Origin: Gemmata obscuriglobus
GTDB taxonomy: Bacteria > Planctomycetota > Planctomycetia > Gemmatales > Gemmataceae
Direction of reading: 5' to 3'
DNA length: 32,000 bases
Assembly (NCBI RefSeq): GCF_008065095.1
Contig: NZ_CP042911.1
Coordinates: 4,770,001-4,802,000, forward strand
Positions 3-25,685 of this stretch are shown one piece after another (position 1 is the stretch's first letter; each line of letters begins with the position of its first letter). The notes beneath the pieces are model-generated. The model ran no database searches. It was not told the DNA's origin and was given only the letters and a program-made list of their open reading frames with translations. The translations under genes were made by a program, and so were the position numbers.

Positions 3-506
3 CCGGTCAAGCTGAAACTGGTCGCCAAAACCGACAAGTACAAGTTCGGCAGCGGCACAGTTCCCGCGGAGTTCAAAAAGTACCTCGAAGAGATTGCGCA
101 GGCCCAGAAGGACGGCAAGCCGGCCCAACCACCCAAACCGCCGGCGGTCGATTTGGTGCTGGAGATCGTCAACACGAGCAAGGACGAGGTGACGATTTAC
201 GTGGGCGGGGACGCCAACACCTGGACCTTCGACCTGACCGGCGGCGACGGCACAGTGAACCTCGGCAGCGGGCTGGCGATGACGCTGGAGTTCCGGCTAC
301 CGAAGGCGGTGACGCTGCCCCCGGGTAAGTCTCACGAGATCCCGGTGAAGCGGTTGTCCGACGGCGCCCGCGGGGCGGGCCGGTACGTGTACTGGACCGG
401 CCCCGGCGAGTACAAACTGAGCGCCAAGTACACGATTTCTGATAAGGACGGTGAGAAGGCCTACGAACTGAAGAGCGAGCCGGTGAAGATCACCGTCGAG
501 AAGTAG
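3..506 (+). CDS. hypothetical protein, 5' end cut by the window edge
   Basis: Frame 3 is open from base 3 (PVKLKLVAKTDKYKF...) and runs into the listed ORF 153..506. Its K/E/D/Y/T-rich composition is coding-like, unlike the R/P/G-rich spurious frames. No family recognised. Confidence 0.6.
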   Translation, partial: PVKLKLVAKTDKYKFGSGTVPAEFKKYLEEIAQAQKDGKPAQPPKPPAVDLVLEIVNTSKDEVTIYVGGDANTWTFDLTGGDGTVNLGSGLAMTLEFRLPKAVTLPPGKSHEIPVKRLSDGARGAGRYVYWTGPGEYKLSAKYTISDKDGEKAYELKSEPVKITVEK

Positions 507-560: not shown

Positions 561-613
561 GCATTCATTGACACAAGGGCAAGGGAGACGGTACGGTAAG
601 GTGAGGAGGGAAC

Positions 614-1177
614 ATGAGTACACAAGTGATGCCCTACGCGACCCTCGCGGACCTGATGAAAGTCGAAGGGAAGGCCGAACTCATCAACGGGAGGATCGTG
701 ACCTTCATGCCCAGCGGATTTTTGCCCAGCCGCGTCGCGCGCAAGATTGTTCGCGCTCTTGAGGACTACGCAACGAGTGGCGGTCACGGTGAACCGGTTG
801 CCGACCCGACGGGGTACGCCTTCGACCCTCCATTACCATCGGGTCGTCAATCTCTTTGCCCAGACGCATCGTTTTACACCGGCGCACTTCCCACGAACCC
901 GATGGGGTTCATCGAAGGTTTCCCGGTCTTTGCGGTCGAGGTGCGGAGCGAGAGCGACTACGGCCCGAAGGCCGATCGCGAGTACGCGGACAAACGCGCC
1001 GATTACTTCTCAGCGGGCACGCGGGTGGTCTGGGATGTCGATCCGGTCGCACAGACGGTCACGAGTTACTCCGCCACCGCGCCGACAACATCGACGACGT
1101 TCCGACGCGGAAGCACGGCCGACGCCGAACCTGCGGTACCCGGATGGCGTCTGTCGGTTGACGCGCTATTCACTTGA
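614..1177 (+). CDS. Uma2 family (DUF820) PD-(D/E)XK putative endonuclease
   Basis: 187-aa ORF with ATG at 614 preceded by GGTGAGGAGGG. Typical Uma2 pattern: ELINGRIV..MP near the N-terminus, CPDASFY, FAVEVRSESD. Confidence 0.8.
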   Translation: MSTQVMPYATLADLMKVEGKAELINGRIVTFMPSGFLPSRVARKIVRALEDYATSGGHGEPVADPTGYAFDPPLPSGRQSLCPDASFYTGALPTNPMGFIEGFPVFAVEVRSESDYGPKADREYADKRADYFSAGTRVVWDVDPVAQTVTSYSATAPTTSTTFRRGSTADAEPAVPGWRLSVDALFT

Positions 1178-1201
1178 TTCTTGCCGGAAGTGGTGTAGTT
1201 T
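1174..1201 (+). promoter_or_regulatory. candidate sigma70-type promoter for the leader ORF and cimA transcript
   Basis: TTGATT (1174-1179), 16-nt spacer, TAGTTT (1196-1201). This would start transcription ~20 nt before the leader-ORF start. Hexamer match only. Confidence 0.3.
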
Positions 1202-1228
1202 TACTGCGATCTGAAGAGGAATAGAACT

Positions 1229-1303
1229 GTGTCGAACGTCTCCGCTATCCTGGTTACCGCGAGCGCCGTAATTGGCGCCGTCGTGATTATTACCACCGGG
1301 TAA
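1229..1303 (+). CDS. 24-codon leader peptide MSNVSAILVTASAVIGAVVIITTG (GTG start), candidate attenuation leader
   Basis: GTG at 1229 lies 8 nt after the Shine-Dalgarno-like AAGAGGA (1214-1220); stop TAA at 1301-1303. The peptide has 4 Ile, 5 Val and 3 Thr, with a terminal run GTC GTG ATT ATT ACC ACC. It uses ATT three times plus GTA and GTT, while neighbouring genes appear to favour ATC, GTG and GTC. Too short for the ORF track. Confidence 0.55.
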   Translation: MSNVSAILVTASAVIGAVVIITTG

Positions 1304-1333
1304 GCGGGGTCCGCCGAAGGTTCAGCCTTACGC

Positions 1334-1364
1334 ACCCCGGAGTTCCCTCCGGGGTTTTTCTTTT
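1334..1364 (+). terminator. intrinsic terminator (attenuator) between the leader ORF and cimA
   Basis: ACCCCGGAG (1334-1342), loop TTCC, CTCCGGGGT (1347-1355), then TTTTTCTTTT, 22 nt before the cimA ATG. CGGGGT (1305-1310) plus CG (1312-1313) can instead pair with ACCCCG (1334-1339) plus CG (1331-1332), which excludes the terminator stem. Confidence 0.65.
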
Positions 1365-1385
1365 CTGCACTCTCCCGAGTCCGCC

Positions 1386-2993
1386 ATGAGCCGCGTCAGC
1401 ATCTACGACACCACCCTCCGGGATGGGAGTCAGGGCGAAGGGGTCAACTTCTCGCTCCAGGACAAGCTGCTCCTCACGAAGCGGCTGGACGAGATCGGCG
1501 TGGAGTACATCGAGGGCGGCTACCCGCTCTCCAACCCGAAGGACTTCGAGTACTTCCAGGCGGTGCGCGGGCTGGACCTCAAACACGCCAAGGTCTGTGC
1601 GTTCGGCATGACCCGGCGAAAGAACGCGCCCGCGGAAACCGACACGTGCCTCAAGGCCCTGCTGGACGCGCACACGCCGGTCGTGACGATCGTGGGCAAA
1701 ACGTGGGACTTCCACGTCACGGAGGTGCTCGGCACCACGCTCGACGAGAACTGCGCGATGATCGCGGACTCCGTTCAATACTGCAAAGCGCAGGGCCGGG
1801 AGGTGTTCTACGACGCCGAGCACTTCTTCGACGGCTATCGCGCGAACCCGGAGTACGCACTCCGCACGCTCAAAGCCGCCGCGGGCGCCGGTGCGGCGGC
1901 GGTGATCCTTTGCGACACCAACGGGGGCACCATGCCGGAGCGCGTCGCCGAGGTGGTGGCGATCGTGACGCGGGCGTTGCCGTGTGAGGTCGGCATCCAC
2001 TGTCACAACGACTGTGAACTCGCGGTGGCGAACTCGCTCGCGGCGGTGCGGGCCGGAGCGACCCAGGTGCAGGGCACGATGAACGGCATCGGCGAGCGGT
2101 GCGGGAACGTCGACCTGATTAGCGTGATCGCGAACCTGGCCATGAAGTACAAGTACGACGTGCTCAAGCCCGGGAGCCTGACGCGCCTCACCGAAACGTC
2201 CCGCTACGCCTACGAGTTGGCGAACATGAACGCCCGGAACGGCCAGCCGTTCGTCGGCCATTCGGCGTTCGCCCACAAGGGCGGGATGCACACGCACGCG
2301 GTCGCCAAGGACCCGAGCACCTACGAGCACATCACGCCGGAGGCCGTCGGGAACGAGCGCCGCATCCTGGTGTCGGAACTGTCCGGGCACTCGACGATTC
2401 TGTCGAAGACCGCGAAGTACCAGATGAACCACGACAAGGCACTGACGACCAAGATCCTCCACGCCGTTCAAGATCTGGAGAACGTGGGGTACGAGTTCGA
2501 GGCGGCCGAGGCGTCATTCGACCTGCTCGTGCGGAAGGTGGCGAAGGACCACAAGCCGTGGCAGGTGGACAAGTCGCTGACGCTGTACAAGCCGTGGTTC
2601 GAGCGAATCTCGTACCGGGTCAACATCGAGGCCCGCGCGAACGGCACCCCGATCACGGAGGGGACCGTCCGGCTGAAAGTGGCGGGGGTCGTCGAGCACA
2701 CCGCCAGCGAAGGGGACGGTCCGGTGAACGCGCTCGACGGCGCGCTGCGGAAGGCGCTCGTGCGGTTCTACCCGCGCCTCGAAGAAATGCAGTTGGTGGA
2801 CTACAAGGTGCGGGTGGTGAACCCGAAGGCCGGGACCGCGGCGAAGGTGCGCGTGGTGATCGAATCGCGCGACGGTACCGACGTGTGGGGCACCGTGGGC
2901 GTGAGCGAGAACATCATTGAGGCGAGTTGGCTCGCGCTCTGCGACGCGATCGAGTTCAAGCTGTTCAAGGACGTGGAACGCGACCAAAAGTAA
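1386..2993 (+). CDS. cimA: citramalate synthase (isopropylmalate/homocitrate/citramalate synthase family, CimA-type)
   Basis: 535 aa. N-terminal IYDTTLRDGSQGEGVNFS..DK DRE-TIM aldolase signature, IHCHND metal site and a C-terminal LeuA-type regulatory domain. Length and sequence fit the TIGR00977-like citramalate synthase branch better than classical LeuA. Family assignment is secure; substrate assignment is inference. Confidence 0.85.
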   Translation: MSRVSIYDTTLRDGSQGEGVNFSLQDKLLLTKRLDEIGVEYIEGGYPLSNPKDFEYFQAVRGLDLKHAKVCAFGMTRRKNAPAETDTCLKALLDAHTPVVTIVGKTWDFHVTEVLGTTLDENCAMIADSVQYCKAQGREVFYDAEHFFDGYRANPEYALRTLKAAAGAGAAAVILCDTNGGTMPERVAEVVAIVTRALPCEVGIHCHNDCELAVANSLAAVRAGATQVQGTMNGIGERCGNVDLISVIANLAMKYKYDVLKPGSLTRLTETSRYAYELANMNARNGQPFVGHSAFAHKGGMHTHAVAKDPSTYEHITPEAVGNERRILVSELSGHSTILSKTAKYQMNHDKALTTKILHAVQDLENVGYEFEAAEASFDLLVRKVAKDHKPWQVDKSLTLYKPWFERISYRVNIEARANGTPITEGTVRLKVAGVVEHTASEGDGPVNALDGALRKALVRFYPRLEEMQLVDYKVRVVNPKAGTAAKVRVVIESRDGTDVWGTVGVSENIIEASWLALCDAIEFKLFKDVERDQK

Positions 2994-3017
2994 ACTGTCG
3001 GGAGGTCGCACGGGGTT

Positions 3018-3131
3018 CCCGCCCTGTGCTACGTCCGGCGACCCCTCCGGGGTGCAACCGTATTGAGCGTATCCCCTAATTGCCCGCCCCGGAGGGGCCG
3101 GCGAGCGTAGCACAGGGCACCCGCCCTGTGC
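3018..3131. repeat. composite GC-rich palindromic element in the cimA-valS spacer
   Basis: GCCCTGTGCTACG (3021-3033) pairs with CGTAGCACAGGGC (3106-3118), and CCCCTCCGGGG (3042-3052) pairs with CCCCGGAGGGG (3087-3097). A second small hairpin, CACAGGGC (3111-3118) with GCCCTGTG (3123-3130), competes for the same bases. Direct repeat CCCGCCCTGTGC at 3018 and 3120. Confidence 0.6.
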
Positions 3132-3155
3132 GCCAAAGGCTGTAGGTAAAGTAAT

Positions 3156-6100
3156 ATGGCGACCGAACTTCCGAAGGCATACGACTCCAAGGCCGCTCAG
3201 GAGAAATGGCTCACCTTCTGGGAAGGCAAAGGCTTCTTCCACAGCGAGCCGGACCCGGAAAAGAAGAAATACCCCAACGGGCCGTACACGATCGTCATCC
3301 CGCCGCCGAACGTGACGGGCGCGCTGCACATGGGGCACGCGCTCAACAACACGCTTCAGGACGTGCTGATCCGCTGGAAGCGGATGCAGGGCTTCAACGC
3401 CCTCTGGATGCCCGGCACCGACCACGCCGGCATCGCCACGCAGTCCGTGGTGGAGCGGCTCGTCCTCGCTCAGGAGAAAAAGACCCGTCATGACCTGGGC
3501 CGCGACGAACTTGTGAAACGCATCTGGGAGTGGAAGGACAAGTACGAGGCCCGCATTCTCGGCCAGCTCCGCGAGATCGGCGCGAGCTGCGACTGGAAGC
3601 GCACGCGCTTCACGCTGGACCCAGTGTGCGCCCGCGCGGTGCGCGAGACGTTCTTCCGGATGTTCCGCGACGGGTACATCTACCGCGGCAAGCGGCTGGT
3701 GAACTGGGACACGCACCTGCAAACGTCCGTGGCTGACGACGAAACCTACACCGAGGACACCAAGAGCGGGTTCTGGACGTTCAAGTATCCCGTGGACGGG
3801 ATGCCCGACACGTTCATCTCGTTCAGCACCACACGCCCCGAAACGATGCTGGGCGATACGGCCGTGTGCGTGCATCCCAACGACGAGCGGTACAAAGCGC
3901 TCGTGGGCAAGTCCGTGGTGCAACCGCACACAGGGCGGAAGATCCCCATTATCGCCGACGGCCAACTCGCCGACCCCGAGCTGGGAACCGGGTGCGTGAA
4001 GGTGACCCCAGCGCACGACCCGAACGACTACGCCTGCTGGCAACGGCACCCAGAAATTGGAATCATCAACATCCTGAACCCTGACGGCACCATCAACGAG
4101 GCCGGCGGCGAGTACAAGGGCCTGGACCGGTATAAGGCCCGCGAGGCCGTGACCGAGAAGATGAAGGAACTCGGGCTGTACGTGGACAAGTCCGAGCGGA
4201 TCGTGCCGATGCCGTTCAGCGATCGGAGCAAGACCCCGATCGAACCGTTCCTGTCGGACCAGTGGTTCGTGAAGATGTCCGACCGCGAGGACGGCAAGCC
4301 CGGCCTCGCACAGATGTCGATGGACGCCGTGGCCTCCGGGAAGGTGAAGTTCTTCCCCGAGCGCTACGCGCGGTCGTACCTCGACTGGCTCGGCGAGAAG
4401 CGCGACTGGTGCATCAGCCGCCAACTGTGGTGGGGGCACCGCATCCCGGTGTGGAGTAAAGAGTTTCCCGCTGAGCAAGACTATGCAGCGATGCGCAAGA
4501 TTATCTCAGAACAATTGAGAAAACTTGACCCCAAGGCGTCTGAGGCAGAAATCGCAGCAAACGTGGAACGGATGCGAGGCCCACATGAACAACAATGGGC
4601 AGCAACCGGCGCGGAGGGCTTCTCGCTCTATAATGGGCGAGGGTTTTCGCGCTCCAACCGCAGTGGTGACGGATCAAAAATCACGCAGTACATCTGCATT
4701 CAAAGCCCCGATCAGGAAACAGAACGGGACTTGGAGCAGCAGGGATACACGCAGTCTGAAGACGTGCTCGACACGTGGTTCTCATCCGCGCTCTGGCCGC
4801 ACAGCACGCTCGGCTGGCCCGGTCCCGCATTGCCCGAGGAGCGTGCCGACCGCACCGCGCCCGACTGGGAGCGCGACCGCTACTACTACCCCACGAGCAC
4901 GCTCGTGACGAGCCGCGACATCATCACGCTGTGGGTGGCGCGGATGGTGCTGACGGGGCTCTACAACCTGAACGAGATCCCGTTCCGTCACGTGTACATC
5001 ACGCCAAAGGTGCTCGACGGGTTCGGCGAGGGGATGAGCAAGTCGAAGGGTAACGGGGTGGACCCGCTCGACATCATTGAGCTTTATGGCACCGACGCCA
5101 TGCGCTACGGCATGGTGAAGCTCGCCACCGAGACGCAGGACGCCAAGCTCCCGGTGTCCAACATCTGCCCGCACTGCGGGAAGGATGTGGCGGTGAAGCA
5201 AGAGCACATGTACATGCGGACCAAGAAGCTCACTTGCCCCGAATGCAAGAAGGAGTTCCGCCCCGGCGGCCCGTGGCCGACGGACGACCCCGACCGCCCC
5301 ACCGCGAAGCAGGGCTCCGACCGGTTCGAGGAGGGCCGCAACTTCGCCAACAAGATGTGGAACGCGACGCGGTTCCTCCTCATGAACCTCGAAGGGTACG
5401 CGGCCGGACCGGTGAACATCGCGGAACTTCCCACCGAAGACCGCTGGCTGCTGTCGCGGCTCGCGACCACCACGAAGGCCGTGACCGCGGCCCTCGACGG
5501 TTACAAGTTCAGCGACGTGGCGCGGCTGCTCTACGACTTCGTGTGGAGCGAGTTCTGCGACTGGTACATCGAGATGTCGAAGGGGCGACTCAAGGACGCC
5601 GCCGCGCGCCCCACCGCGCAGCGGGTGCTCGCCGGGGTGCTCGACGGCATTATGCGGCTGGTGCATCCGCTCATGCCGTTCGTGTCGGAATCGCTGTGGC
5701 AGGCGCTGAACGAAACGGCCCCCGAGCGTGGGCTCCCCTCCCCCGCCAAGGCCGAGGAGAGTGCGGCGATTGCCGCGTGGCCGTCGTACCCCGACGCCTG
5801 GATCAGCGCCGACGTGGAAGCACGTTTCGCCCGGATGCAGGAGTTGGTGCGCGGGGTGCGCGAGATCCGCAACCGCTACCAGGTGGACGACAAGACGAAG
5901 CTCGACGTGGCCGTGAAGTGCTCCGCGGCCGTGGCCGCCGAGTTCAACGCCCTGGCCGCGTTCATCGGGCCGCTGGCGGGAATCGCGACCCTCACCGCCG
6001 GCCCCGACACCGCCAAGCCCAAACAGGCGGGCGGGTTGGTGAAGCCGGACTTCGAGGCGTATGTGTCGCTCGCGGGGCTGATCGACGCCGCCGCCGAGAT

Positions 6101-6290
6101 GAAGCGGCTCGAAAAGCAGATCGCCGACAAGCGGAAGGCGCTCGACGGCACACGGGCGAAACTCGCCAACGAGAAGTTCGTGAACAGCGCCCCGGCCGAG
6201 GTGGTGCAGCAGCAGCGCGACCTGCTCGCCGACATTGAGAAGCAGATCGCAACCTTGGAGGAGAACCTCAAGGATTTGCAGAGCGCGTGA
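3156..6290 (+). CDS. valS: valine--tRNA ligase
   Basis: 1044 aa. HIGH-type motif PPPNVTGALHMGHA, KMSKS-type GMSKSKGN, WCISRQLWWGHRIP, EDVLDTWFSS, RNFANKMWNA and a C-terminal coiled coil. Confidence 0.97.
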   Translation: MATELPKAYDSKAAQEKWLTFWEGKGFFHSEPDPEKKKYPNGPYTIVIPPPNVTGALHMGHALNNTLQDVLIRWKRMQGFNALWMPGTDHAGIATQSVVERLVLAQEKKTRHDLGRDELVKRIWEWKDKYEARILGQLREIGASCDWKRTRFTLDPVCARAVRETFFRMFRDGYIYRGKRLVNWDTHLQTSVADDETYTEDTKSGFWTFKYPVDGMPDTFISFSTTRPETMLGDTAVCVHPNDERYKALVGKSVVQPHTGRKIPIIADGQLADPELGTGCVKVTPAHDPNDYACWQRHPEIGIINILNPDGTINEAGGEYKGLDRYKAREAVTEKMKELGLYVDKSERIVPMPFSDRSKTPIEPFLSDQWFVKMSDREDGKPGLAQMSMDAVASGKVKFFPERYARSYLDWLGEKRDWCISRQLWWGHRIPVWSKEFPAEQDYAAMRKIISEQLRKLDPKASEAEIAANVERMRGPHEQQWAATGAEGFSLYNGRGFSRSNRSGDGSKITQYICIQSPDQETERDLEQQGYTQSEDVLDTWFSSALWPHSTLGWPGPALPEERADRTAPDWERDRYYYPTSTLVTSRDIITLWVARMVLTGLYNLNEIPFRHVYITPKVLDGFGEGMSKSKGNGVDPLDIIELYGTDAMRYGMVKLATETQDAKLPVSNICPHCGKDVAVKQEHMYMRTKKLTCPECKKEFRPGGPWPTDDPDRPTAKQGSDRFEEGRNFANKMWNATRFLLMNLEGYAAGPVNIAELPTEDRWLLSRLATTTKAVTAALDGYKFSDVARLLYDFVWSEFCDWYIEMSKGRLKDAAARPTAQRVLAGVLDGIMRLVHPLMPFVSESLWQALNETAPERGLPSPAKAEESAAIAAWPSYPDAWISADVEARFARMQELVRGVREIRNRYQVDDKTKLDVAVKCSAAVAAEFNALAAFIGPLAGIATLTAGPDTAKPKQAGGLVKPDFEAYVSLAGLIDAAAEMKRLEKQIADKRKALDGTRAKLANEKFVNSAPAEVVQQQRDLLADIEKQIATLEENLKDLQSA

Positions 6291-11043: not shown

Positions 11044-12420
11044 GTGATCTCGTCAAGAGCCCACAGCATTTGGACGGTTTCCGTTCTGCTCCTCGCGCTC
11101 CCGGCGGACCTGTCCGCGCAGAAGCCGCCTTACGATGTCTTCCCACCAGCCGACCCGCCGTACTACCGCGTGCGGTATGAAGCGTCGGCCAAGATGGGCG
11201 AGCTGCCCTTCGCCGTCAACTACACGGTCTGGGTTCCAAAAGGTGTGAAGGCGCTCCGCGGGGTGATCGTCCACCAGCACGGCTGCGGCGAAGGGTCGTG
11301 CAAGTCGGGCCTGACGGGCGCGTTCGACCTGCACTGGCAGGCGCTTGCCCGGAAGCACGACTGTGCTCTCCTGTCGCCGGCCTACGAGCAGCCGGAGAAG
11401 GCCGATTGTCAGTTGTGGTGCGACCCGCGCAACGGCTCGGACGCGGCGTTCCGGAAATGCCTGATCGACCTCGGCGCAAAATCCGGACATCCGGAACTGT
11501 CGGAAGTGCCGTGGGCGCTGTGGGGGCACAGCGGCGGCGGGCACTGGGCCGGTGGCATGGTGATGCTGCACCCGGAACGAGTGGCGGCGGCGTGGCTCCG
11601 CTCGGGCGTGCCGCTCCTGAAGCCAGACCCGACCCGGACCGGGATCAAGGCTCACACGCTCCCCGAAGCGGCGCTGAAAGTCCCACTTATGTGCAACCTC
11701 GGCACGAAGGAAGGGGTCACCGTGAAGGACCCGCGGTTCGCGAGTGTATGGCCCGCCAACGAGACCTTCTTCAACGAGGTGCGCGGGAAAGGCGGGCTGA
11801 TCGGCGTGGCCGTCGATCCCCTTTCGAGCCACGATTGCGGCAACCAGCGGTACCTCGCGATCCCGTGGCTGGACGCGTGTCTCAGCGCCCGCTTACTGAA
11901 GCAAGCGGGGAAACCGCTTAACGCGATGCCGACCGAAGGCGTTTGGCTCGCACCTCCGACCGGTAGCGAGGCGACCCCGGCCGCGAAGTTTACCGGCGAC
12001 CCGCTCAAGGCCGCGTGGCTCCCGAACGAGTCGATCGCCCGGGCGTGGGCTCAGTACGTGAAGGACTCCGCGGTCACCGACAGGACACCCCCACCCCCAC
12101 CGACCAACGTCCGGCGCAACGGCAACGAGATCACATGGGACGGCGAAGCCGATCTGGAGAGCGGGCTGGCGGCTTTCGTGATCGAGCGCGACGGGAAAGT
12201 GATTGGGACCGTTCCCGAGCAGGGGAAGAACCCGTTCGGGCGGCCGGTCTTTCAGAACCTGCAGTACAGCGACACCCCCACCCAGCCGTTCGTCCCGATG
12301 AAGTTCACGGACACTAAAGCCGAGGCGGGGAAGAAGCACGTGTACCGCGTGATCGCGGTCAACACGGCAGGACTCAAGTCTAAACCGAGCGAACAAGCCG
12401 CCACGCCACCGGCCCCGTAA
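11044..12420 (+). CDS. secreted alpha/beta-hydrolase-like esterase with a C-terminal fibronectin-III-like domain
   Basis: 458 aa with a GTG start and signal peptide ([19 protein letters not shown]). Nucleophile-elbow motif GHSGGG. The C-terminus ([19 protein letters not shown]...[15 protein letters not shown]) looks FN3-like. Confidence 0.7.
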
Positions 12421-12443
12421 TCCCGACCCCTGAGCCGACCTGC

Positions 12444-13301
12444 ATGAACCCGACGCCCCGCCCCGCCCCGCCCGAGTCGTTCGGCGCCATGCTCGAACAG
12501 GCCCTCGGTGCCGTCGTAGCAATCTCGGAGCGCGACGACCTGCGCAACGTCGCCCGTGCCGTGTCTCACGCCGCCTGGGACCGCTTCATCGGCTCGCGTG
12601 GGCCACGAGACAACCGCCAGGAGCACGAGTGGGTCGTACTCGCCAACGTCCTGCGAATCGCCGAAGCGGAGCGGCTCACGCTCTCCGAGAAGCGCGTCGC
12701 CGTCGCGTTCACCTTCACCCACGACTCGCACTTCATCCCGCGCATCTCGGAGCAGGAGGTGCGCGAAGCGAGATCACCCGAAGCGAAAGTCCTGCTGGAA
12801 ACCAGAAAGGAAGCGCAACGGTACGAGCACATGCGGTTCGGCGCCGCCAACGCCCGCTCGCTGCTGAACCGGCTAACAGATCCGCGCACCGATGACGGGC
12901 CGCTGCTGACCGCCGAAGAAATCGACCGGTGCGCGCAGATCATCAGCACGCACGACGCCTGGAAGCTCCGCAACCCGGCCCCACCGCCCACCGGTGATCG
13001 CCTCGCCCTGGCGTGCGTCGAGGGGGATGCCCTGTGGCCGCTCCACCCGCTCGGTGTGCTCGCTGACCTGGAGCGGCCGAACGATCAGGGCGTGACAAAG
13101 GACTTCAATGACCCGCAAGCGTGGCGCGTGCAGACGCAGCAAAGCTGCCAAACGCTCGTGGAGTTCCGGGCCAAGTGGAAAGGGTTTCCCGCCTCAGACT
13201 TCGTTGACGGAGAGTCGATCTTCCGAACCCAAGAAGGGGGCCACCTGTACAGCGCGTGGCGACGGCACTGGAATCTGACCGACCTGGAGCGCGGGGTCTG
13301 A
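12444..13301 (+). CDS. hypothetical protein (possible HD-type metal-dependent phosphohydrolase; weak)
   Basis: 285-aa ORF with coding-like composition. It contains two HD dipeptides in plausible contexts (FTFTHDSHF, ISTHDAWK). No secure family assignment. Confidence 0.55.
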   Translation: MNPTPRPAPPESFGAMLEQALGAVVAISERDDLRNVARAVSHAAWDRFIGSRGPRDNRQEHEWVVLANVLRIAEAERLTLSEKRVAVAFTFTHDSHFIPRISEQEVREARSPEAKVLLETRKEAQRYEHMRFGAANARSLLNRLTDPRTDDGPLLTAEEIDRCAQIISTHDAWKLRNPAPPPTGDRLALACVEGDALWPLHPLGVLADLERPNDQGVTKDFNDPQAWRVQTQQSCQTLVEFRAKWKGFPASDFVDGESIFRTQEGGHLYSAWRRHWNLTDLERGV

Positions 13302-13315
13302 AAACCGACTGGGTT

Positions 13316-13361
13316 CAGTGCCGTGCACCCGCACACAATGCGAGCGGGTGCAACGGCACTG
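13316..13361. terminator. 17-bp hairpin between convergent genes (bidirectional terminator-like)
   Basis: CAGTGCCGTGCACCCGC (13316-13332) pairs with GCGGGTGC-A-ACGGCACTG (13344-13361) with one bulged A. No strong U-tract. Confidence 0.4.
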
Positions 13362-13367
13362 ACACGC

Positions 13368-14351
13368 TTACTTCCCGATCAGCGGCAGAATCACACGGTC
13401 CACATCCGCCTCTGTTTGCACCGGCGGGACGTTGCCGTGCAGCTCCCAGCTTTCCTTGAGTTCCGCGGACGCGCCGGGGGCGAGGGTCACCAGCTCTCCG
13501 ACTGTCTCCATTTCGAGCATGTCCTCGTTGGAGAACGTTTGGTACCGCGTGCCCCGGTCGGGGTACACCGCTCCCTCGCGGTAGTCGAACCGCTTAACGA
13601 ACAGCGTGCCCGAATTCAGGTAGCCGACCCACCCTTCACGGTGCGCCAGGCCGATCTTGGTCGGCCCCTTGTTCACGTCCTGGCGGAGCAGCGCGTAATT
13701 CTTTCCGAACGTCCAGCGGGTGTCCGCGAAGTCGAAATACGGCCACAGGATCAGCTCCTGGTTCGGGCCGTAGTCCGCGGGGGACTTGGCGTTGCTCGGA
13801 TGCCCCGGGTGGTTCTTTTTCGGCGGCAGTGGGAGGATTTCCACCCCCCCGGGCGCCATCACGGTCGGCCCCCAGGGCGCGAGTTCGGTCGGCGCGGTCC
13901 CGATGTTCGTCACGCGGAGAGTGACCTCCACCGCGGTGCCGCTCGGGGCGAGGCGCAGTTCCATCACCTTTTGAACGCCGTACTCGGTCTCGGGCGGCGG
14001 GGTGAACCGGGCGCCGTGCGTCCCGATCGCCTCCCACTTCACCGGGCGGTTGTCTGCGAAGTACGTGCGGGTGAGATCTTCAGGCGCGAGCCAGAACCGG
14101 TGACCGCCACGGATCTGCCATTCCGCCTCGCCGGTGCCGCCCATCATGGAGTCGTAGTTCTTCATCACGTTGAACCCGCCGGGGAGCCGGTACGCGATCA
14201 CGCGCGGCCCCACGTCCAGGGTCACCACCAGTTCGACCGCACCGTTGGTGAGCAGCAGGTTGTTCTTCCACCCGCGGTATTCGATGACGTCCACGCCGCT
14301 GTGCCTCGCTGGAGAGAAAAAAGGGGAAGTAAACGAAGCAACGGTCGGCAT
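13368..14351 (-). CDS. hypothetical protein, galactose-mutarotase-like / DUF4380-like
   Basis: 327 aa with no signal peptide. Sequence such as GGHRFWLAPE..., TNIGT.P.ELAPW and E.ETVGELVTLAPGAS...W.L resembles aldose-epimerase-fold DUF4380 proteins, from memory. It lies 36 nt downstream of the surface-protein gene on the same strand. Confidence 0.6.
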   Translation of the reverse strand: MPTVASFTSPFFSPARHSGVDVIEYRGWKNNLLLTNGAVELVVTLDVGPRVIAYRLPGGFNVMKNYDSMMGGTGEAEWQIRGGHRFWLAPEDLTRTYFADNRPVKWEAIGTHGARFTPPPETEYGVQKVMELRLAPSGTAVEVTLRVTNIGTAPTELAPWGPTVMAPGGVEILPLPPKKNHPGHPSNAKSPADYGPNQELILWPYFDFADTRWTFGKNYALLRQDVNKGPTKIGLAHREGWVGYLNSGTLFVKRFDYREGAVYPDRGTRYQTFSNEDMLEMETVGELVTLAPGASAELKESWELHGNVPPVQTEADVDRVILPLIGK

Positions 14352-14387
14352 GTTTCCACGCCGACCGTTCGCATAATCCGTTTCAGT

Positions 14388-15563
14388 TCACTTGGAGCCG
14401 AGCATCCGGACACCGAGCCGCCACGTCCCGACGGTGCCGAGAGCGATCGCACCCAGCAACAAGCCCGCGGGCGCCGGAACCGGGTTGGTCGGCGTTGTCG
14501 GGGTCGTCGGCGTATTCGGGTCGGTCGGCGTTGTCGGGGTCGTCGGCGTGTCGGGGCCTCCCACCGGCGGGGTCGTGGTCGTGGTGGTCGGCGGGGTTGT
14601 GGTCGTGGTCGTCGTACTGCCCCCCGGCGGGGTGGTCGTGGTCGTGCCGTTATTCGGGTTGCTGAAGAACCCGCCACCGCCACCGGTGCCACCACCCAGA
14701 CCGCCGACACCGCCTCCGCCCAGCGGCGCACCGGCACCACCCGCCAGCCCACCGCCGCCGGCGGTCAGCGCCCGGGCCATCGCCCCCGTACCCGCTGCCC
14801 CGCCGCCCGCGTATCGCAGAGCGAACTGCGACTGGGTAGCGCTACCGTCCGCCTGCGGAAGGCCTTGCAGCCGGATCAGTTCCCGACCACGAAGGTCCGG
14901 GTTCTCGATCAGCAGCGCGTCGTCCTTACCGGTCAGGGTACCGAGGTACTCCTGAGCGCGGGTCACGTAAACCGGCGCCTCGGCTTTCGGGTAGTTGGCC
15001 TGGAAGTCGCCGTCGAACAGGTCGAGCTTCAGTTCCCCTTGGGCCGGTTCGGGCTCCTGAATGACCTCCCACAGGGCGATTTGGAACGCCACCGCGTCGG
15101 TCGGGTCGACCGACTTCAGGACCGGATCGCGGAAGTGGCGACCGAACAGTTCCTGGACGAGGCGGGCGCGGCGGTTGGTAACATCCCCAACCTTATCCTG
15201 CGCGACCCCGGCGAGGTTGAAGTTCTTGGGTTCGTAGAGGTTGTTTGCGCGGAACTGGTAGGTCTTTTCCGCCACGATCGGGACCAGCACCTCGGCGCAG
15301 TAACCGGTGAAGTTCCGGTCGAGGCCGTTGGTGCCGTACTCGGTGCGCGGGACTTCCCACCGGAAGACCCCGGCGGAGCAAACGCTTTCCTTGAACTTGC
15401 CGTCCTGCTTGTACTTGTACTTGAACTGCTCCTTCGGCTCGAGCCTGTTGTAGAACACTTCAAGGGCCGGCTCCTGCCCCACCGCTCGCGTTTGCGAGAA
15501 CAGGGCGAGCGGGACGGCCGCGACAAGGGCGGCCAGCCGGGCACGGACGGATGAACGACACAT
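14388..15563 (-). CDS. secreted surface protein: thioester-domain-like N-terminal module, Gly-rich and Thr/Pro-rich stalk, PEP-CTERM-like C-terminal anchor
   Basis: 391 aa with signal peptide MCRSSVRARLAALVAAVPLALFSQTRAVGQ. GYCAEV (Cys89, codon 15297-15299) and AFQIALWEV (Gln161, codon 15081-15083) resemble the [YFL]CxE and TQxA[IV]W thioester motifs. C-terminus: VPAPAG-LLLGAIALGTVG-TWRLGVRMLGSK. Confidence 0.75.
   Translation of the reverse strand: MCRSSVRARLAALVAAVPLALFSQTRAVGQEPALEVFYNRLEPKEQFKYKYKQDGKFKESVCSAGVFRWEVPRTEYGTNGLDRNFTGYCAEVLVPIVAEKTYQFRANNLYEPKNFNLAGVAQDKVGDVTNRRARLVQELFGRHFRDPVLKSVDPTDAVAFQIALWEVIQEPEPAQGELKLDLFDGDFQANYPKAEAPVYVTRAQEYLGTLTGKDDALLIENPDLRGRELIRLQGLPQADGSATQSQFALRYAGGGAAGTGAMARALTAGGGGLAGGAGAPLGGGGVGGLGGGTGGGGGFFSNPNNGTTTTTPPGGSTTTTTTTPPTTTTTTPPVGGPDTPTTPTTPTDPNTPTTPTTPTNPVPAPAGLLLGAIALGTVGTWRLGVRMLGSK
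14487..14558. repeat. 36-bp tandem repeat (2 copies) inside the Thr/Pro stalk coding region
   Basis: GGTCGGCGTTGTCGGGGTCGTCGGCGT occurs at 14487 and again at 14523. On the minus strand it encodes TPTTPTTPTDPN and TPTTPTTPTNPV. Confidence 0.8.
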
Positions 15564-15847
15564 GGCGGACGAGCTCCCGCGTTCAAGACGCCGGACTAAA
15601 AATCACTCAGCGCGGAGGGTCGCGCTACATTAAAAGACGATACCGAGGGCCGGTTGTTCTTAAAAGACCGTTCTCATCGGAAAGCGCGTACGCCACACCG
15701 AATTAAACGGTCGCATGAACCGTAACGTTTATTTCGGCACAGCGACAGCAGGAATTCACTTCTGGAAACACGGCCGGGGGTATTACGGGCGCTTTCACCG
15801 GCACCTTGCACGAAGTTCGTGTGAGAAGCGAGAACATCTTCGGCGGC

Positions 15848-15856
15848 TGCTATAAT
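15848..15856 (+). promoter_or_regulatory. candidate extended -10 promoter element for ygiQ
   Basis: TGcTATAAT (TG 15848-15849, TATAAT 15851-15856) ~38 nt upstream of the ATG at 15894. No good -35. A 13-bp palindrome CACGAAgTTCGTG lies at 15809-15821. Confidence 0.3.
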
Positions 15857-15893
15857 CAGCGTGGATCAGCCCTTTCTATTCCAGGCCGACGTG

Positions 15894-17951
15894 ATGTCTA
15901 CCGCTCCGACCCGCATTCCCCTCTCACTCTGGCAGGAGCGGTACGCGGCCCCGTTCGCGCCCACCACGGCGGCCGAGGTGGCGGCCCGCGGCTGGGACGC
16001 CGTCGACATCGTGTTCGTAACGGGGGACGCCTACGTCGACCACCCGAGCTTCGCGATGGCGATCCTGCACCGGGTGCTCGAAAAGGCCGGGTTCCGGGTC
16101 GCGATCCTGAGCCAACCGGACTGGAAAACCTGCGAGCCCTGGCGCCAGTTCGGCCGCCCGCGCCTGTTCTTCGCGGTGAGCGCGGGGAACATGGACTCGC
16201 TCATCAACCACTACACCGCGAACAAGAAGGTCCGCAACGACGACGCGTACTCGCCGGGCGGGCGCATCGGGCTGCGCCCGGACCGCGCCACCCTGCCCTA
16301 CTGTCAGCGGGCGCGCGAGGCGTTCCCGGGCGTGCCGGTGATCGCCGGCGGGGTGGAAGCCTCGCTGCGGCGGCTGGCGCACTACGACTACTGGTCCGAC
16401 ACGGTGAAGCGGTCGATCCTGCTCGACTCGAAGGCCGATCTGGTCGTGTACGGGATGGGCGAGGGGAGCATCGTCACGATCGCGCAAAAGCTGAAGGCCG
16501 GCGGGACGCTGCGCGACCTCCGGGCCCTCCGCGGCGTCACGTACGCGCTGGGCGCGAAGGAGTCCGAAGCGTACGCCGCCCGCACCGCCGACGCGTCGTT
16601 CGAGCTGCTGCCGTCGTTCGAGCAGGTGCGCGACAGCAAGGAGGCGTTCGCCGAGGCGACGCGCCTGATCCACACCAACACGAACCCGTTCAACGCGGCG
16701 ACGCTGGTGCAGTTTCACGACCGGCAGGCGGTGGTGCAGAACCCGCCCGCGCTGCCGATCTCGCGGGAGGAAATGGACGCGGTGTACGACCTGCCGTACA
16801 ACCGCCGCCCGCACCCGAGCTACACGGAGCCGGTCCCCGCCCACGAGATGATCAAGGATTCGGTGACGATCCTGCGCGGGTGCTTCGGCGGCTGCACGTT
16901 CTGCTCGATCACGGCGCACCAGGGGCGGATCATCCAGAGCCGCTCGCCGGAGTCGGTCCTGCGCGAGGTGGAGAAGCTCGCGGCCGACCCGGACTTCAAG
17001 GGGATCATCTCGGACATCGGCGGCGCGACCGCGAACATGTACACGATGCGCTGCACGCTGCCGGAAGTGGAAGCGAAGTGCAAGCGGCTGTCGTGCGTCC
17101 ACCCGACGGTGTGCAAGCTGCTCGGGACCGACCACGGCCCGCTGATCGAGCTCATGCGCGAGGTGCGCGAAACAGAAGGGGTGCGGAAGGTGCTGGTGTC
17201 CTCGGGCATCCGGATGGACCTGGCGCAACTCTCACCGGAATACGTTCGCGAGCTAGCCGAGCACCACACCGGCGGACGCTTGAAGGTCGCGCCCGAGCAC
17301 ACCAGTCCCAAGGTTCTGGAGGCGATGAAGAAGCCCGACATCGACAACTTCGGGGTGTTCGCCGAGCAGTTCCGCCAGGCGAGCGCCGACGCCGGCAAGC
17401 CGAAGCAGCAGATCGTGCCGTACTTCATCGCGAGCCACCCGGGCAGCGACCTCGCGGAGATGATCGACCTCGCCCTGTACCTGAAGCAGAACGGCTACCG
17501 CCCGGACCAGGTGCAGGACTTCATTCCCGCCCCGTTCGACATCGCGACGTGCATGTATTACGCGGGCCTCGACCCGTTCACCAAGAAGCCGGTGCAAACG
17601 GCCAAGAACCTGACCGACCGCAAGATGCAGCGGGCGCTCATGCAGTTCTTCAAGCCCGAGAACTACTTCACCGTCCGCGAGGCCCTGATCCAGGCCGGCC
17701 GCGCCGACCTCATCGGCGGGTGCAACGGCCTCATCCCCGCGCAGCCCCCGAAGGAAGCCATCGAAGCCCGCCGCAAGCACGCCAACGCGGCCGTGGGCGC
17801 GGACCACTACCACACCGTCGCCAACCCCGCCAGGGGCGAGAAGCCGGGCGAGCGCGGCGCCGAGCCGGCGAAGACGGGCTACCGCCCGGGGCGGAAGTCG
17901 CAGAAAAGGCGGCAGGAGAAGCGGAAAGGGAACTCCGGTCCGAAGCCGTAG
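15894..17951 (+). CDS. ygiQ: YgiQ family radical SAM protein (UPF0313)
   Basis: Radical-SAM cluster motif CFGGCTFCSITAHQG, the N-terminal YgiQ-type domain (DIVFVTGDAYVDHPSF) and a basic Lys/Arg-rich C-terminal tail. Start taken at the ATG at 15894; the track ORF starts at the upstream in-frame GTG at 15861. Confidence 0.9.
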   Translation: MSTAPTRIPLSLWQERYAAPFAPTTAAEVAARGWDAVDIVFVTGDAYVDHPSFAMAILHRVLEKAGFRVAILSQPDWKTCEPWRQFGRPRLFFAVSAGNMDSLINHYTANKKVRNDDAYSPGGRIGLRPDRATLPYCQRAREAFPGVPVIAGGVEASLRRLAHYDYWSDTVKRSILLDSKADLVVYGMGEGSIVTIAQKLKAGGTLRDLRALRGVTYALGAKESEAYAARTADASFELLPSFEQVRDSKEAFAEATRLIHTNTNPFNAATLVQFHDRQAVVQNPPALPISREEMDAVYDLPYNRRPHPSYTEPVPAHEMIKDSVTILRGCFGGCTFCSITAHQGRIIQSRSPESVLREVEKLAADPDFKGIISDIGGATANMYTMRCTLPEVEAKCKRLSCVHPTVCKLLGTDHGPLIELMREVRETEGVRKVLVSSGIRMDLAQLSPEYVRELAEHHTGGRLKVAPEHTSPKVLEAMKKPDIDNFGVFAEQFRQASADAGKPKQQIVPYFIASHPGSDLAEMIDLALYLKQNGYRPDQVQDFIPAPFDIATCMYYAGLDPFTKKPVQTAKNLTDRKMQRALMQFFKPENYFTVREALIQAGRADLIGGCNGLIPAQPPKEAIEARRKHANAAVGADHYHTVANPARGEKPGERGAEPAKTGYRPGRKSQKRRQEKRKGNSGPKP

Positions 17952-18071
17952 CGGCTAGCTCACCGCCAGGTCAGAACTCTGGGTCCGTATCGGGTGCCGT
18001 GGTTGTCAAGTCGGCGGAACCCAGCATCGCTCGAGGTGACCGCAGAGCGTATCGCTGAGTGACGAATCGCT

Positions 18072-23657: not shown

Positions 23658-25156
<1,499 letters not shown>

Positions 25157-25357
25157 AATTTTCGCACTGCCAGTCACCCGGCAGCGACTTGGTCGAGTTC
25201 AATCCGGCCGTTGTTCGGTGTCGACTTCACTTTGGACCGCACCACACCGCACGCACCCCACCTCGCGGTGAAGCCCGTTCGTTGTGATTCGATCCGAGAT
25301 GGAGTTAACACCCACTCAACGGCGCTAACCCACCTCAAACAGATCTCACGCACCCAC

Positions 25358-25370
25358 TTGTCAAAGATCA
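25358..25370 (-). promoter_or_regulatory. boxA-like antitermination element in the 5S-16S spacer
   Basis: The minus strand reads TGATCTTTGACAA, compared with the E. coli rrn boxA TGCTCTTTAACAA. It lies ~200 nt upstream of the 16S 5' end. Confidence 0.55.
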
Positions 25371-25471
25371 GCACTCGGCTCAACCGTTTGACCGGTCGAG
25401 CAAGCCACTCCTCATCAGAGTGTATTGACGATCGACTCACTCGTACAGTGGGAGTCGATCAATTATAAAGT

Positions 25472-25579: not shown

Positions 25580-25685
25580 ATGGTTCGTGTCGGGTGTTAC
25601 CCCGACGGTGTATCGGTACAACGTGGTGAAGCGTCAAGTCGCATCGCGTGTGTCATTCGAGACAGAGCGGTGGAGTGGGGAGTGC

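Follow-up and report, generated by a model that had tools for sequence, protein, structure and literature searches.

A predicted ribosome-mediated leader-peptide attenuator upstream of the citramalate synthase gene cimA in planctomycetes

Organization of the cimA locus of Gemmata obscuriglobus

The window analysed here is a stretch of 32,000 nt from the genome of Gemmata obscuriglobus (contig NZ_CP042911.1, positions 4,770,001 to 4,802,000 of the forward strand). It contains cimA and, after a gap of 162 nt, valS (Table 1). The scan of the window detects no terminator-like site between the two genes, and there is no other branched-chain amino-acid gene in the window.

Upstream of cimA, a short leader ORF is enclosed between a putative promoter and an intrinsic terminator. 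The original prediction was that of a transcription attenuator in which translation of Val, Ile and Thr codons of this ORF controls cimA, and the features that it described are all found by reading the sequence, the terminator being separated from the ATG of cimA by 21 nt. The ORF does have 24 codons on the forward strand, with GTG, not ATG, as the start codon. It is preceded, as predicted, by a Shine–Dalgarno-like motif, and there is no such purine run upstream of the ATG of cimA. The putative promoter directly upstream of the ORF and the probable cimA–valS operon discussed below were absent from that prediction and were found in the present analysis.

Table 1. Position of the predicted attenuator elements and of the downstream genes in the window.
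Feature	Position	Strand	Description and basis
Sigma-70-like promoter (putative)	1174-1201	+	-35 TTGATT 1174-1179, 16-nt spacer, -10 TAGTTT 1196-1201
Shine-Dalgarno-like motif	1214-1220	+	AAGAGGA, 8 nt upstream of the leader GTG; sequence reading
Leader ORF	1229-1303	+	GTG start, 24 sense codons, TAA stop 1301-1303; sequence reading and ORF list
ORF-internal hairpin	1259-1281	+	GCG-A-GCGCCG / UAAU / UGGCGCCGU; lowest-energy folds
Putative sensing codons	1280-1297	+	GTC1280 GTG1283 ATT1286 ATT1289 ACC1292 ACC1295 (Val Val Ile Ile Thr Thr)
Region 2, antiterminator 5' strand	1305-1313	+	CGGGGTCCG; begins 2 nt past the leader stop codon
Region 3, antiterminator 3' strand	1331-1339	+	CGCACCCCG; overlaps the initial 6 nt of the terminator 5' arm
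Intrinsic terminator	1334-1364	+	Stem 1334-1342/1347-1355, 9 bp (7 G-C), loop TTCC, T-run to 1364
cimA, (R)-citramalate synthase	1386-2993	+	TIGR00977, 695 bits (cut-off 450)
valS, valine-tRNA ligase	3156-6290	+	NF004349, 1036 bits

The peptide encoded by the leader ORF is (M/V)SNVSAILVTASAVIGAVVIITTG (VSNVSAILVTASAVIGAVVIITTG). The putative sensing codons are followed by GGG and then by the stop codon. In the closest relatives (loci L001, L002, L003, L005 and L009), a purine-rich GAGAG or AAGAGG motif is found at an equal distance from the start. The -35 element of the leader promoter is overlapped by the stop codon (1175-1177) of the upstream gene, which belongs to the Uma2 family. This promoter has one mismatch and was missed by a generic scan and by the strict pattern used below; it was assigned from its position and from homology.

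The terminator has the sequence ACCCCGGAG-TTCC-CTCCGGGGT (1334-1355), followed by TTTTCTTTT. It is the sole terminator-like site between positions 600 and 3300, and one of only two strict terminators on both strands of the entire window. The alternative pairing proposed in the original prediction, in which region 2 captures the beginning of the terminator stem, consists of 8 pairs and one C-C mismatch, and it is extended by an inner helix (1317-1320/1326-1329). The calculated energies of the isolated hairpins are close: -17.0 kcal/mol for the antiterminator versus -17.8 for the terminator.

Another hairpin is predicted inside the ORF, and its loop contains an ATT codon (1271-1273). Comparison by eye reveals counterparts of this hairpin, with a different sequence, in L001, L002, L003 and L005. 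It is a candidate RNA polymerase pause or coupling hairpin.

Conservation of the leader in planctomycetes

The original prediction suggested looking in related genomes for a similar Ile/Val/Thr-rich ORF followed by a terminator before cimA, ilv and leu genes. The unit that we find consists of a TTGACN-17-TAnnnT promoter, a short Ile/Val-rich ORF, an antiterminator strand linked to the stop codon and a covarying terminator. Two independent sets of cimA loci were examined: of about 77 usable loci from genomes, 44 carry the unit upstream of the gene, and of 73 from metagenomes, 34 do. Homologues of the leader ORF are found in 78 loci; within these figures the loci are mutually related and some counts are not independent. 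The carriers include the cultured Gemmata sp. IIL30, Rhodopirellula maiorica, Novipirellula rosea and strain ZRK32. From Gemmataceae to Pirellulales, the upstream gene changes but the leader ORF stays, as do its terminator and the antiterminator next to its stop codon. When both strands of 80 genome loci and of the window are considered, the succession of an Ile- or Val-rich ORF, a terminator and a gene is found solely before cimA. Three weak candidates are located elsewhere (in L014, L072 and L080), and they have Leu- or Asn-rich tails.

A strict promoter (TTGACN-16..18-TAnnnT) lies 5' of the leader ORF in 40 of the 44 genome loci, compared to 0.25 expected from shuffled sequences, and in 25 of the 34 metagenome loci. 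The ATG of the ORF is located 6-8 nt past the -10 element in nine loci or more (L004, L007, L017, L019, L026, L033, L034, L068 and L071), which would imply that the start is leaderless and hence translated. The density of strict terminators over the 260 nt that precede cimA is 100 times that of the rest of the loci (1.14 Mb of strand-bases).

These comparisons bear on the trivial explanation according to which the hairpin and its T-run belong to the Uma2-family gene, as its terminator, or act as an insulator, the Ile/Val-rich ORF being a chance frame. It is true that the terminator is situated 157 nt past the stop codon of the upstream gene, and that spurious ORFs are abundant in GC-rich DNA. 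However, an ORF of the Uma2 family is found upstream in just 4 of 80 loci, compared to at least 44 for the leader and the terminator, which indicates that the unit travels with cimA and not with the upstream gene; moreover, the promoter separates the upstream gene from the ORF in 40 of 44 loci. The enrichment over shuffled sequences and the replication in the independent metagenome set are not what is expected of a chance ORF, and the identities between the CimA proteins of different loci (53-90%) rule out that assembly duplicates are being counted. We rejected this explanation, which the comparative data effectively refute, and we give it next to no probability.

Covariation and folding of the leader RNA

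The alignment of the terminator stem from 36 sequences has 98.4% of its cells paired, and 6 of the 9 pairs are changed on both sides; the covariation score was matched by none of 500 shuffles. In the MAFFT alignment of 36 leaders, the terminator is aligned well but the antiterminator strand is not, its offset from the stop codon being variable. The covariation of the antiterminator was therefore assessed by swapping arms between loci: the native pairings are more stable than the swapped ones, with p=0.0018 in the genome set and p=1.6e-5 in the metagenome set. Covariation, which the original prediction had suggested looking for in both stems, is thus detected in each of them. RNAalifold, applied to seven close relatives, gives firm support for the terminator only.

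The 5' strand of the antiterminator sits on the leader stop codon or beside it. The best partner of the 5' arm of the terminator begins between -10 and +9 nt from the leader stop in 34/34 genome loci and 33/34 metagenome loci. In many Pirellulales, the stop codon is even inside the antiterminator helix, for example in L053, where GGTCTTAGGGC pairs with GCCCTGAGGCC. Between the last Ile codon and the antiterminator there are 16 nt in the median case, and 12 nt or more in 86% of the 78 loci.

We also folded the nascent RNA in the presence of a modelled ribosome footprint. For the window, this calculation gives the antiterminator as the minimum-energy structure at just two positions of the A site, Ile codon 1289 and Thr codon 1292 (and, partly, at Thr codon 1295), and the antiterminator is masked when the ribosome is at the Gly codon or at the stop codon. 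The model agrees with the original proposal that a ribosome at the stop codon masks positions 1305-1313 and that a ribosome at the Ile codons leaves them free. With the modelled ribosome at the stop codon, the antiterminator is unable to form in 43 of 44 loci; with the ribosome at least 5 codons upstream, it forms in about 28 of 44, and in about one third of the loci this simple folding model yields no antiterminator.

In the same model, about half of the loci form the antiterminator even when no ribosome is present, which suggests that a 1:2 layer acting as anti-antiterminator is not general. A search for a conserved region-1 partner had no discriminating power, since almost any G-rich segment finds a partner. 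In the lowest-energy fold of the window RNA, 1304-1310 pairs with 1240-1246, and RNAalifold pairs 1305-1311 with 1274-1280 instead. According to these folds, the window would have a full design of the 1:2 / 2:3 / 3:4 type. When the full-length RNA of the window is folded, the terminator is the lowest-energy structure under every ribosome scenario, so that read-through would depend on kinetics, with the antiterminator forming first. Such a dependence on folding kinetics is usual for attenuators.

Codon content of the leaders

The codons ATT, GTA and GTT had been predicted to be rare, and the codon usage of cimA and valS in the window confirms it: Ile is encoded 12 times by ATT versus 56 times by ATC, and among 109 Val codons, GTA is absent and GTT occurs twice. 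In comparison, the leader ORF of the window alone contains three ATT, one GTA and one GTT. The same bias is found across the genome loci, where ATT makes up 76% of the Ile codons in leaders versus 18% in cimA; the ATT:ATC counts are 79:25 in leader tails versus 145:660 in cimA (p=1e-32), and 64:27 versus 176:619 in the second, metagenome, set (p=9e-20).

Relative to the cimA background, the leader tails are enriched in Ile (5.3x) and in Val (2.0x), depleted in Leu (0.2x) and Phe (0.08x), and there is no family-wide enrichment in Thr (1.0x). At least three Ile codons are found among the final 15 codons in 27 of 48 loci (2.8 expected from dinucleotide shuffles), and at least five Ile and Val codons in 31 of 48 (1.3 expected). 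The original prediction invoked control by Ile, Val and Thr. The part of it that concerns Ile is borne out by both the enrichment and the ATT bias, the contribution of Val appears to depend on valS (see below), and a role of Thr has no support at the level of the family. It is chiefly the Gemmata-like leaders that have the Thr-Thr pair, Thr codons being scattered in the others, and the pair may consist of spacer codons only.

The gene valS comes after cimA in about 50 of 80 genome loci. The gap between the two genes is only 2-13 nt in several genome loci, and slight overlaps between them occur in the metagenome set. They probably form an operon that is regulated as a unit, and we infer that the two genes of the window are co-transcribed. 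In the genome loci, the tail of the leader contains on average 3.0 Val codons when valS is downstream and 0.73 when it is not (p=8e-5); the difference persists after collapsing relatives (p=6e-4 and 0.007), and it is replicated in the metagenome set (3.4 versus 1.6, p=0.018). The number of Ile codons in the leader is the same with and without valS. That the Val codons track the presence of valS downstream of cimA suggests that the unit probably controls the whole operon. This association, which is correlative, would mean that the codon content of the leader evolves along with the content of the operon.

One may ask whether the ORF codes instead for a functional, small hydrophobic membrane peptide which has its own promoter and terminator, the Ile and Val residues forming a transmembrane segment, while cimA is transcribed by leak-through or from another promoter. 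The leader peptide is indeed hydrophobic, its ORF is bracketed by a promoter and a terminator, and the tail AVIGVVVVITTG is conserved among the leaders of the Gemmata-like subgroup. However, beyond the Ile/Val run, the leaders vary widely in sequence, and their length ranges from about 19 to 45 codons. Leu and Phe, which are typical of membrane helices, are precisely the residues that are depleted, and a bias towards the rare ATT codon is not expected from a protein-coding need. Neither would a membrane peptide account for the tie between the stop codon and an antiterminator strand whose sequence covaries with that of the terminator, for a Val content that follows the downstream valS, or for the occurrence of the unit solely before cimA. 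We consider that a membrane peptide is very improbable.

Is the switch operated by a trans-acting factor?

In another alternative, the switch is real, but a ligand or a trans-acting factor, and not the translating ribosome, operates it: a small RNA, a protein that binds RNA, or a mechanism akin to riboswitches or T-boxes could do so, the ORF being incidental or auxiliary. The leaders of many Gemmataceae contain a nearly invariant 15-nt hairpin, GCGCAGGGAGTGCGC (GCGCAGGGAGUGCGC), always located 9 nt after an in-frame ATT. The third-codon positions of this hairpin are conserved, which suggests an element recognized by RNA or protein. In addition, there is a precedent in Streptomyces coelicolor, where mutating the regulatory codons elicited no response from the leader attenuators predicted for ilvB and leuA (PMC1262725).

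Against the involvement of such a factor, the 15-nt hairpin is absent from the window; where it is present, it could be a new pause or coupling module. Searches with Rfam at the gathering threshold, in the whole window and in 15 further loci, gave no relevant match, be it to T-boxes, riboswitches or cis-regulatory leaders, including Thr_leader, Leu_leader, His_leader, Trp_leader and ilvB-OMG. A permissive search of positions 1100-1450 returned, as the best sub-threshold match, the rnk leader of Pseudomonas (27.4 bits for a threshold of 55), which is essentially a match to the terminator. The RNA between promoter and terminator is nearly all ORF. Last, a trans-acting factor does not explain why ATT is preferred in frame, why the stop codon is coupled to the antiterminator, why the Ile codons keep their spacing from it, or why Val codons go with valS. 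Control by such a factor is improbable in our opinion.

The T-box riboswitch was considered separately and rejected: no T-box match was obtained at E<=10 on positions 1100-1450, and the leader RNA, of about 155 nt, is mostly ORF and too short for a T-box.

Proposed mechanism

We consider it very likely that the element is a classical ribosome-mediated leader-peptide transcription attenuator of cimA, and probably of the cimA-valS operon. The core of the original reading, namely that the position of the ribosome selects either the antiterminator or the terminator before cimA and reports on the charging of Ile-tRNA, is supported by the comparison of sequences between loci. Translation of the leader ORF, coupling between transcription and translation, polymerase pausing and the response to amino-acid supply are inferred from the arrangement of the elements.

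Transcription would begin a few nucleotides past the -10 element. A ribosome would load at AAGAGGA/GTG and translate the leader as RNA polymerase advances, and the ORF-internal hairpin may pause the polymerase so that the two machineries remain coupled. If charged Ile-tRNA (and Val-tRNA) is ample, the ribosome would reach the TAA codon, its footprint would cover region 2 and prevent the formation of the antiterminator, and the hairpin 1334-1355, with its T-run, would stop the transcript before cimA. A shortage of charged Ile-tRNA or Val-tRNA would instead stall the ribosome at GTC GTG ATT ATT, the ATT codons being rare and wobble-read. The stalled ribosome would cover region 1, leaving region 2 free to pair with region 3 as soon as the latter is transcribed. 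With the 5' arm of the terminator tied up in this manner, the polymerase would proceed into cimA, whose product feeds the pyruvate route to isoleucine, and into valS.

Comparison with known attenuators

The organization of the leader resembles that of the enterobacterial ilvGMEDA, ilvBN and thr leaders and the trp model: a short leader with clustered codons for the end product, a region 2 that lies shortly after the stop codon, hairpins 2:3 and 3:4 that exclude each other, and a terminator with a T-run. The likeness to the ilv and thr leaders was part of the original prediction; the comparison with thr is weak, Thr not being enriched family-wide. In trpL, two Trp codons are followed by three codons and the stop, and likewise in the window two Ile codons are followed by three codons and the stop. 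Unlike the enterobacterial leaders, with which it shares no detectable sequence or structure homology (no Rfam match), the planctomycete element has depleted Leu codons, appears to be leaderless in some members of its family, lacks a general 1:2 layer and precedes cimA and then valS. To our knowledge, the citramalate (pyruvate) route is absent from enterobacteria.

A second group of related systems is that of the uORFs found upstream of ilvB in actinobacteria and in Leptospira (the Corynebacterium ilvB-II motif, ilvB-OMG and the Leptospira ilvB motif; PMC10272879, PMC1262725), which are also rich in branched-chain codons, with Thr in some of them, overlap or precede a strong intrinsic terminator with a predicted antiterminator, and were also discovered by comparative genomics in GC-rich genomes. 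The ilvB-II motif was validated with a reporter (PMC10272879). The planctomycete leaders differ from them by the downstream genes, cimA-valS instead of ilvB, by the lack of a match to the Rfam models, by the dominance of Ile encoded by a rare codon, and by a stop codon which is embedded in the antiterminator or abuts it.

The presence of a synthetase gene behind a leader that contains the cognate codons, Val and valS in our case, is reminiscent of the attenuators of E. coli pheM-pheST and of those predicted for Streptomyces trpS and leuS (PMC1262725). Here, in contrast, the synthetase gene comes second, the first being a biosynthetic gene that serves another amino acid, and a single leader combines two classes of codons, with the caveat that the link to valS is correlative. 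The literature that we searched reports no leader-peptide attenuator of valS.

Regarding T-boxes specific to Ile or Val, the likeness is that tRNA charging sets the expression of an Ile-pathway or synthetase gene through the choice between terminator and antiterminator. The T-box, unlike the planctomycete leader, which is mostly ORF, binds and senses the uncharged tRNA itself, by means of its Stem I and T-box sequence, without translation. In Deltaproteobacteria, an Ile T-box was reportedly described by Vitreschak et al. (2008) in front of a cimA-like paralogue of leuA.

The original prediction was made in unawareness of any attenuator of this kind in planctomycetes or before cimA, and we found no prior description in Rfam 15 or in the open-access literature that was searched; the broad attenuator survey of Lopatovskaya et al. 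2010 may contain an earlier mention.

Implications for planctomycete biology

If our interpretation is correct, this would be, as far as we could find, the first leader-peptide attenuator described for Planctomycetota, for a citramalate synthase and for valS. The element may also be used as an annotation marker, as it would point to genuine promoters, start sites of translation and intrinsic terminators, which are difficult to call in such genomes.

Classical attenuation needs a ribosome that follows closely behind RNA polymerase. A conserved attenuator in Gemmata-like bacteria would therefore be genomic evidence that transcription and translation are coupled in these organisms. A spatial separation of the two processes has been proposed for the Gemmata-like lineage (as cited in PMC5394234); if it were general, it would be incompatible with ribosome-mediated attenuation, and the attenuator would offer a simple reporter for testing it. 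A broader reading is plausible but tentative, and we stop just short of favoring it: the element would be a phylum-wide two-input attenuator of Planctomycetota, in which Ile is sensed for cimA through the rare ATT codons, with Val codons as an addition in operons that contain valS, and its conservation would mean that transcription and translation are physically coupled in Gemmata-like genomes.

The cimA leader in the window

The original prediction placed before cimA a 24-codon leader ORF with an AAGAGGA site 8 nt upstream, codons that are rare in this DNA, an intrinsic terminator, and a strand next to the leader stop codon that can pair with the 5' arm of that terminator; all of these are found in the sequence (see the table). 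As a matter of fact, cimA and valS together use ATT 12 times and ATC 56 times, and GTA and GTT make up 2 of their 109 Val codons. The terminator is the sole terminator-like site in 600-3300. The antiterminator is lengthened by a helix (1317-1320/1326-1329), and as isolated hairpins the two have similar energies (-17.0 kcal/mol for the antiterminator vs -17.8 for the terminator).

Features of the window (window positions)
Feature	Position	Strand	Remarks
Uma2-family gene	614-1177		putative restriction endonuclease (PF05685); ends with TGA 1175-1177 within the -35 hexamer of the leader promoter
Leader promoter	1174-1179, 1196-1201	+	-35 TTGATT, 16-nt spacer, -10 TAGTTT
AAGAGGA site	1214-1220	+	8 nt 5' of the leader start codon
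Leader ORF	1229-1303	+	24 codons, GTG start, TAA stop 1301-1303, peptide VSNVSAILVTASAVIGAVVIITTG
Final leader codons	GTC1280 GTG1283 ATT1286 ATT1289 ACC1292 ACC1295 GGG1298	+	read from the sequence
Antiterminator	1305-1313 with 1331-1339		CGGGGTCCG with CGCACCCCG; 8 pairs, one C-C mismatch
Intrinsic terminator	1334-1355		stem-loop ACCCCGGAG-TTCC-CTCCGGGGT, then TTTTCTTTT
cimA	1386-2993	+	TIGR00977 citramalate synthase, 695 bits (cut-off 450)
valS	3156-6290	+	next gene after cimA
ORF	11044-12420	+	458 aa
ORF	12444-13301	+	285 aa
ORF	13323-15554	+	743 aa
ORF	15806-18058	+	750 aa
23S rRNA	28435-25684	-	
5S rRNA	25579-25472	-	
16S rRNA	25156-23658	-	

Canonical hairpin-plus-T-run terminators are very rare in the window and in all 80 loci of the genome set described below. 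On both strands of the 32-kb window, only two sites fit a strict definition, that of cimA and one at 13791-13813, which sits within a long ORF. Elsewhere in the window, none of the four successive large plus-strand ORFs (11044-18058) matches a Pfam family at E<=1e-5. The rRNA genes (23658-28435) are ordered 23S, 5S, 16S along the minus strand, so that the 16S gene lies downstream of 23S-5S rather than upstream.

Conservation of the element

Scanning one genome per species, with CimA identities that range from 90% in Gemmataceae down to about 55% in Pirellulales, gave 80 cimA loci. In 48 of them a hairpin with a T-run is found in the 260 nt preceding cimA, and in 44 of these 48 an Ile/Val-rich ORF ends 19-50 nt before the hairpin. 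At least three Ile codons are present among the last 15 codons (the leader tail) in 27/48 loci, when dinucleotide shuffles average 2.8 with a maximum of 8, and at least five Ile+Val codons in 31/48, when 1.3 are expected from shuffles of the same regions. There are 45 strict terminators in the 260-nt zones that precede cimA, as opposed to 25 in the other 1.14 Mb of strand-bases, so that their density is 100-fold higher in the former. The search for a similar ORF and terminator in relatives, suggested in the original prediction, was thus successful, and an independent scan of metagenome contigs replicated it in 34 of 73 usable loci. Over all loci and both strands, the combination of Ile/Val-rich ORF, terminator and gene is confined to cimA, and the candidates in front of other ORFs are three weak ones with Leu- or Asn-rich tails. 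The upstream neighbour belongs to the Uma2 family in only 4/80 loci: the element is conserved along with cimA rather than with the neighbouring upstream gene.

A promoter motif (TTGACN-16..18-TAnnnT) lies 5' of the leader ORF in 40/44 genome loci (0.25 expected) and in 25/34 metagenome loci. In at least nine loci (L004, L007, L017, L019, L026, L033, L034, L068, L071) an in-frame ATG follows the -10 hexamer by 6-8 nt; these leader mRNAs would be leaderless, which would fix the reading frame independently. In the window and in its closest relatives, by contrast, the 5' UTR is 22-27 nt long and contains a GAGAG/AAGAGG site.

Both stems covary, as the original prediction asked to be checked. In an alignment of 36 sequences, the terminator stem is 98.4% paired, 6 of its 9 pairs are changed on both sides, and 0/500 shuffles match the observed score. 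Since the antiterminator lies at a variable offset from the stop codon, MAFFT could not align it, and the strand that pairs best with the terminator 5' arm was located locus by locus. This strand begins between -10 and +9 nt relative to the leader stop in 34/34 genome and 33/34 metagenome loci, and native pairings are stabler than those with an arm taken from another locus (Wilcoxon p=0.0018 and p=1.6e-5, respectively) or with shuffled spacers (p=1.5e-7). The antiterminator strand follows the type of terminator arm: CGGGG with CCCCG in the Gemmata-like group, TCCAGGGCT with AGCTCTGGA in L017, GCCTGAGG with CCCTCAGG in L033, and GGTCTTAGGGC with GCCCTGAGGCC in L053, where the leader stop codon is within the helix.

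Codon usage of the leader tails

Ile is encoded by ATT 79 times and by ATC 25 times in the leader tails of the genome set, vs 145 and 660 in the adjacent cimA genes (Fisher p=1e-32); the ATT:ATC counts in the metagenome set are 64:27 and 176:619 (p=9e-20). This bias cannot be an artefact of ORF selection. A rare, wobble-decoded Ile codon is what would be expected of a site built to stall ribosomes when charged tRNA-Ile is low. The leader ORF could instead encode a mere membrane-helix peptide, a reading that the depletion of Leu and Phe in the tails argues against. The regulatory run, proposed to consist of Ile, Val and Thr codons, is borne out by enrichment for Ile and Val, but not for Thr (1.0x).

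A nearly invariant 15-nt element, GCGCAGGGAGTGCGC, is present within the leader ORFs of 23 loci (L003, L004, L006, L008-L011, L017, L019, L021, L024, L071, L081-L084, L086, L087, L089, L092-L094, L126) and missing from the window. It encodes A-Q-G-V-R and folds as a 5-bp hairpin with the loop GGGAG; 16 of the 23 copies are identical, third codon positions included, and the L024 copy is compensatory (GCGCG...CGCGC). Ile codons precede it, with an in-frame ATT exactly 9 nt upstream of every copy, and Val codons follow it. The hairpin may serve in pausing or coupling, or the element may be a binding site.

Proposed switching mechanism

We modelled the ribosome as a footprint from A-18 to A+12, counted from the first base of the A-site codon (A), and folded the nascent RNA as far as the terminator loop. 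For the window, no A-site position but Ile 1289 and Thr 1292 (and, partly, Thr 1295) makes the antiterminator the lowest-energy fold. When the ribosome is absent or farther upstream, 1304-1310 pairs with 1240-1246, which would act as a region 1 (the strand that sequesters region 2, the 5' strand of the antiterminator), and with the A site at the Gly or stop codon region 2 is masked. Comparing the alternative folds thus reproduces the predicted logic, in which a ribosome at the stop codon masks 1305-1313 and one stalled at Ile frees it, and which is also that of the trp, ilv and thr attenuators. In 43/44 loci a modelled ribosome placed at the stop codon prevents the antiterminator from forming; with one placed at least five codons upstream, the antiterminator forms in about 28/44, and the transition mostly coincides with the Ile run. 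The first paired antiterminator base follows the last Ile codon by a median of 16 nt (at least 12 nt in 86% of 78 loci). The full-length lowest-energy fold holds the terminator in every case, which implies that read-through into cimA would have to be kinetic.

Val codons and valS

The valS gene follows cimA in about 50 of the 80 genome loci; in several of these 2-13 nt lie between the two genes, and in the metagenome set they overlap slightly in some cases. In the genome loci, Val codons per tail amount to 3.0 with valS downstream (n=26) and 0.73 without (n=11; p=8e-5). This difference persists when loci are collapsed at 85% (3.03 vs 0.72, p=6e-4) or 75% CimA identity (2.95 vs 0.65, p=0.007), and in the metagenome loci (3.4, n=21, vs 1.6, n=8; p=0.018). 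The number of Ile codons, on the contrary, is the same (3.08 vs 3.09, genome loci). The Val codons, which had been grouped with Ile and Thr, therefore most likely report for ValRS, as the pheM leader does for the synthetase encoded by the downstream pheST. The exceptions, in the metagenome set, are L086 and L093, where the 1.2 kb that follow cimA yielded no valS; it may be that synteny was lost recently. Their leaders are of the Gemmataceae type, with 7 and 4 Val in the last 15 codons.

In the window, 162 nt separate cimA from valS. Most of this gap is taken up by a 46-nt inverted repeat (3007-3052/3087-3132), whose arms, 34 nt apart, are 78% complementary and lack a T-run, and whose core has no second copy in the window. 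Given an inverted repeat but no terminator in this gap, co-transcription of cimA and valS is a plausible prediction.

Relation to known attenuators

Neither the window nor any of 15 other cimA loci matches a family of Rfam 15. In the literature searched, the broad survey of Lopatovskaya et al. 2010 excepted, we found no description of leader-peptide attenuation of cimA, of valS or in planctomycetes. Of the systems described so far, the nearest are the ilv, thr and trp attenuators of enterobacteria, the ilvB uORFs of actinobacteria (ilvB-II, ilvB-OMG and the Leptospira ilvB motif; PMC10272879, PMC1262725) and synthetase attenuators such as pheST, trpS and leuS (PMC1262725). As a caution, the predicted ilvB and leuA attenuators of S. 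coelicolor did not pass codon-mutation tests (PMC1262725).

The cimA leader is a real conserved element, which is predicted to work like a classical attenuator: four of the five structural features of the latter are present, and the fifth, the 1:2 pairing, may be. Attenuation needs coupled transcription and translation, which gives this leader an added interest. A spatial separation of the two processes has been proposed for Gemmata, in work cited in PMC5394234. The predicted cimA attenuator bears on whether transcription and translation are coupled or spatially separated in this organism.
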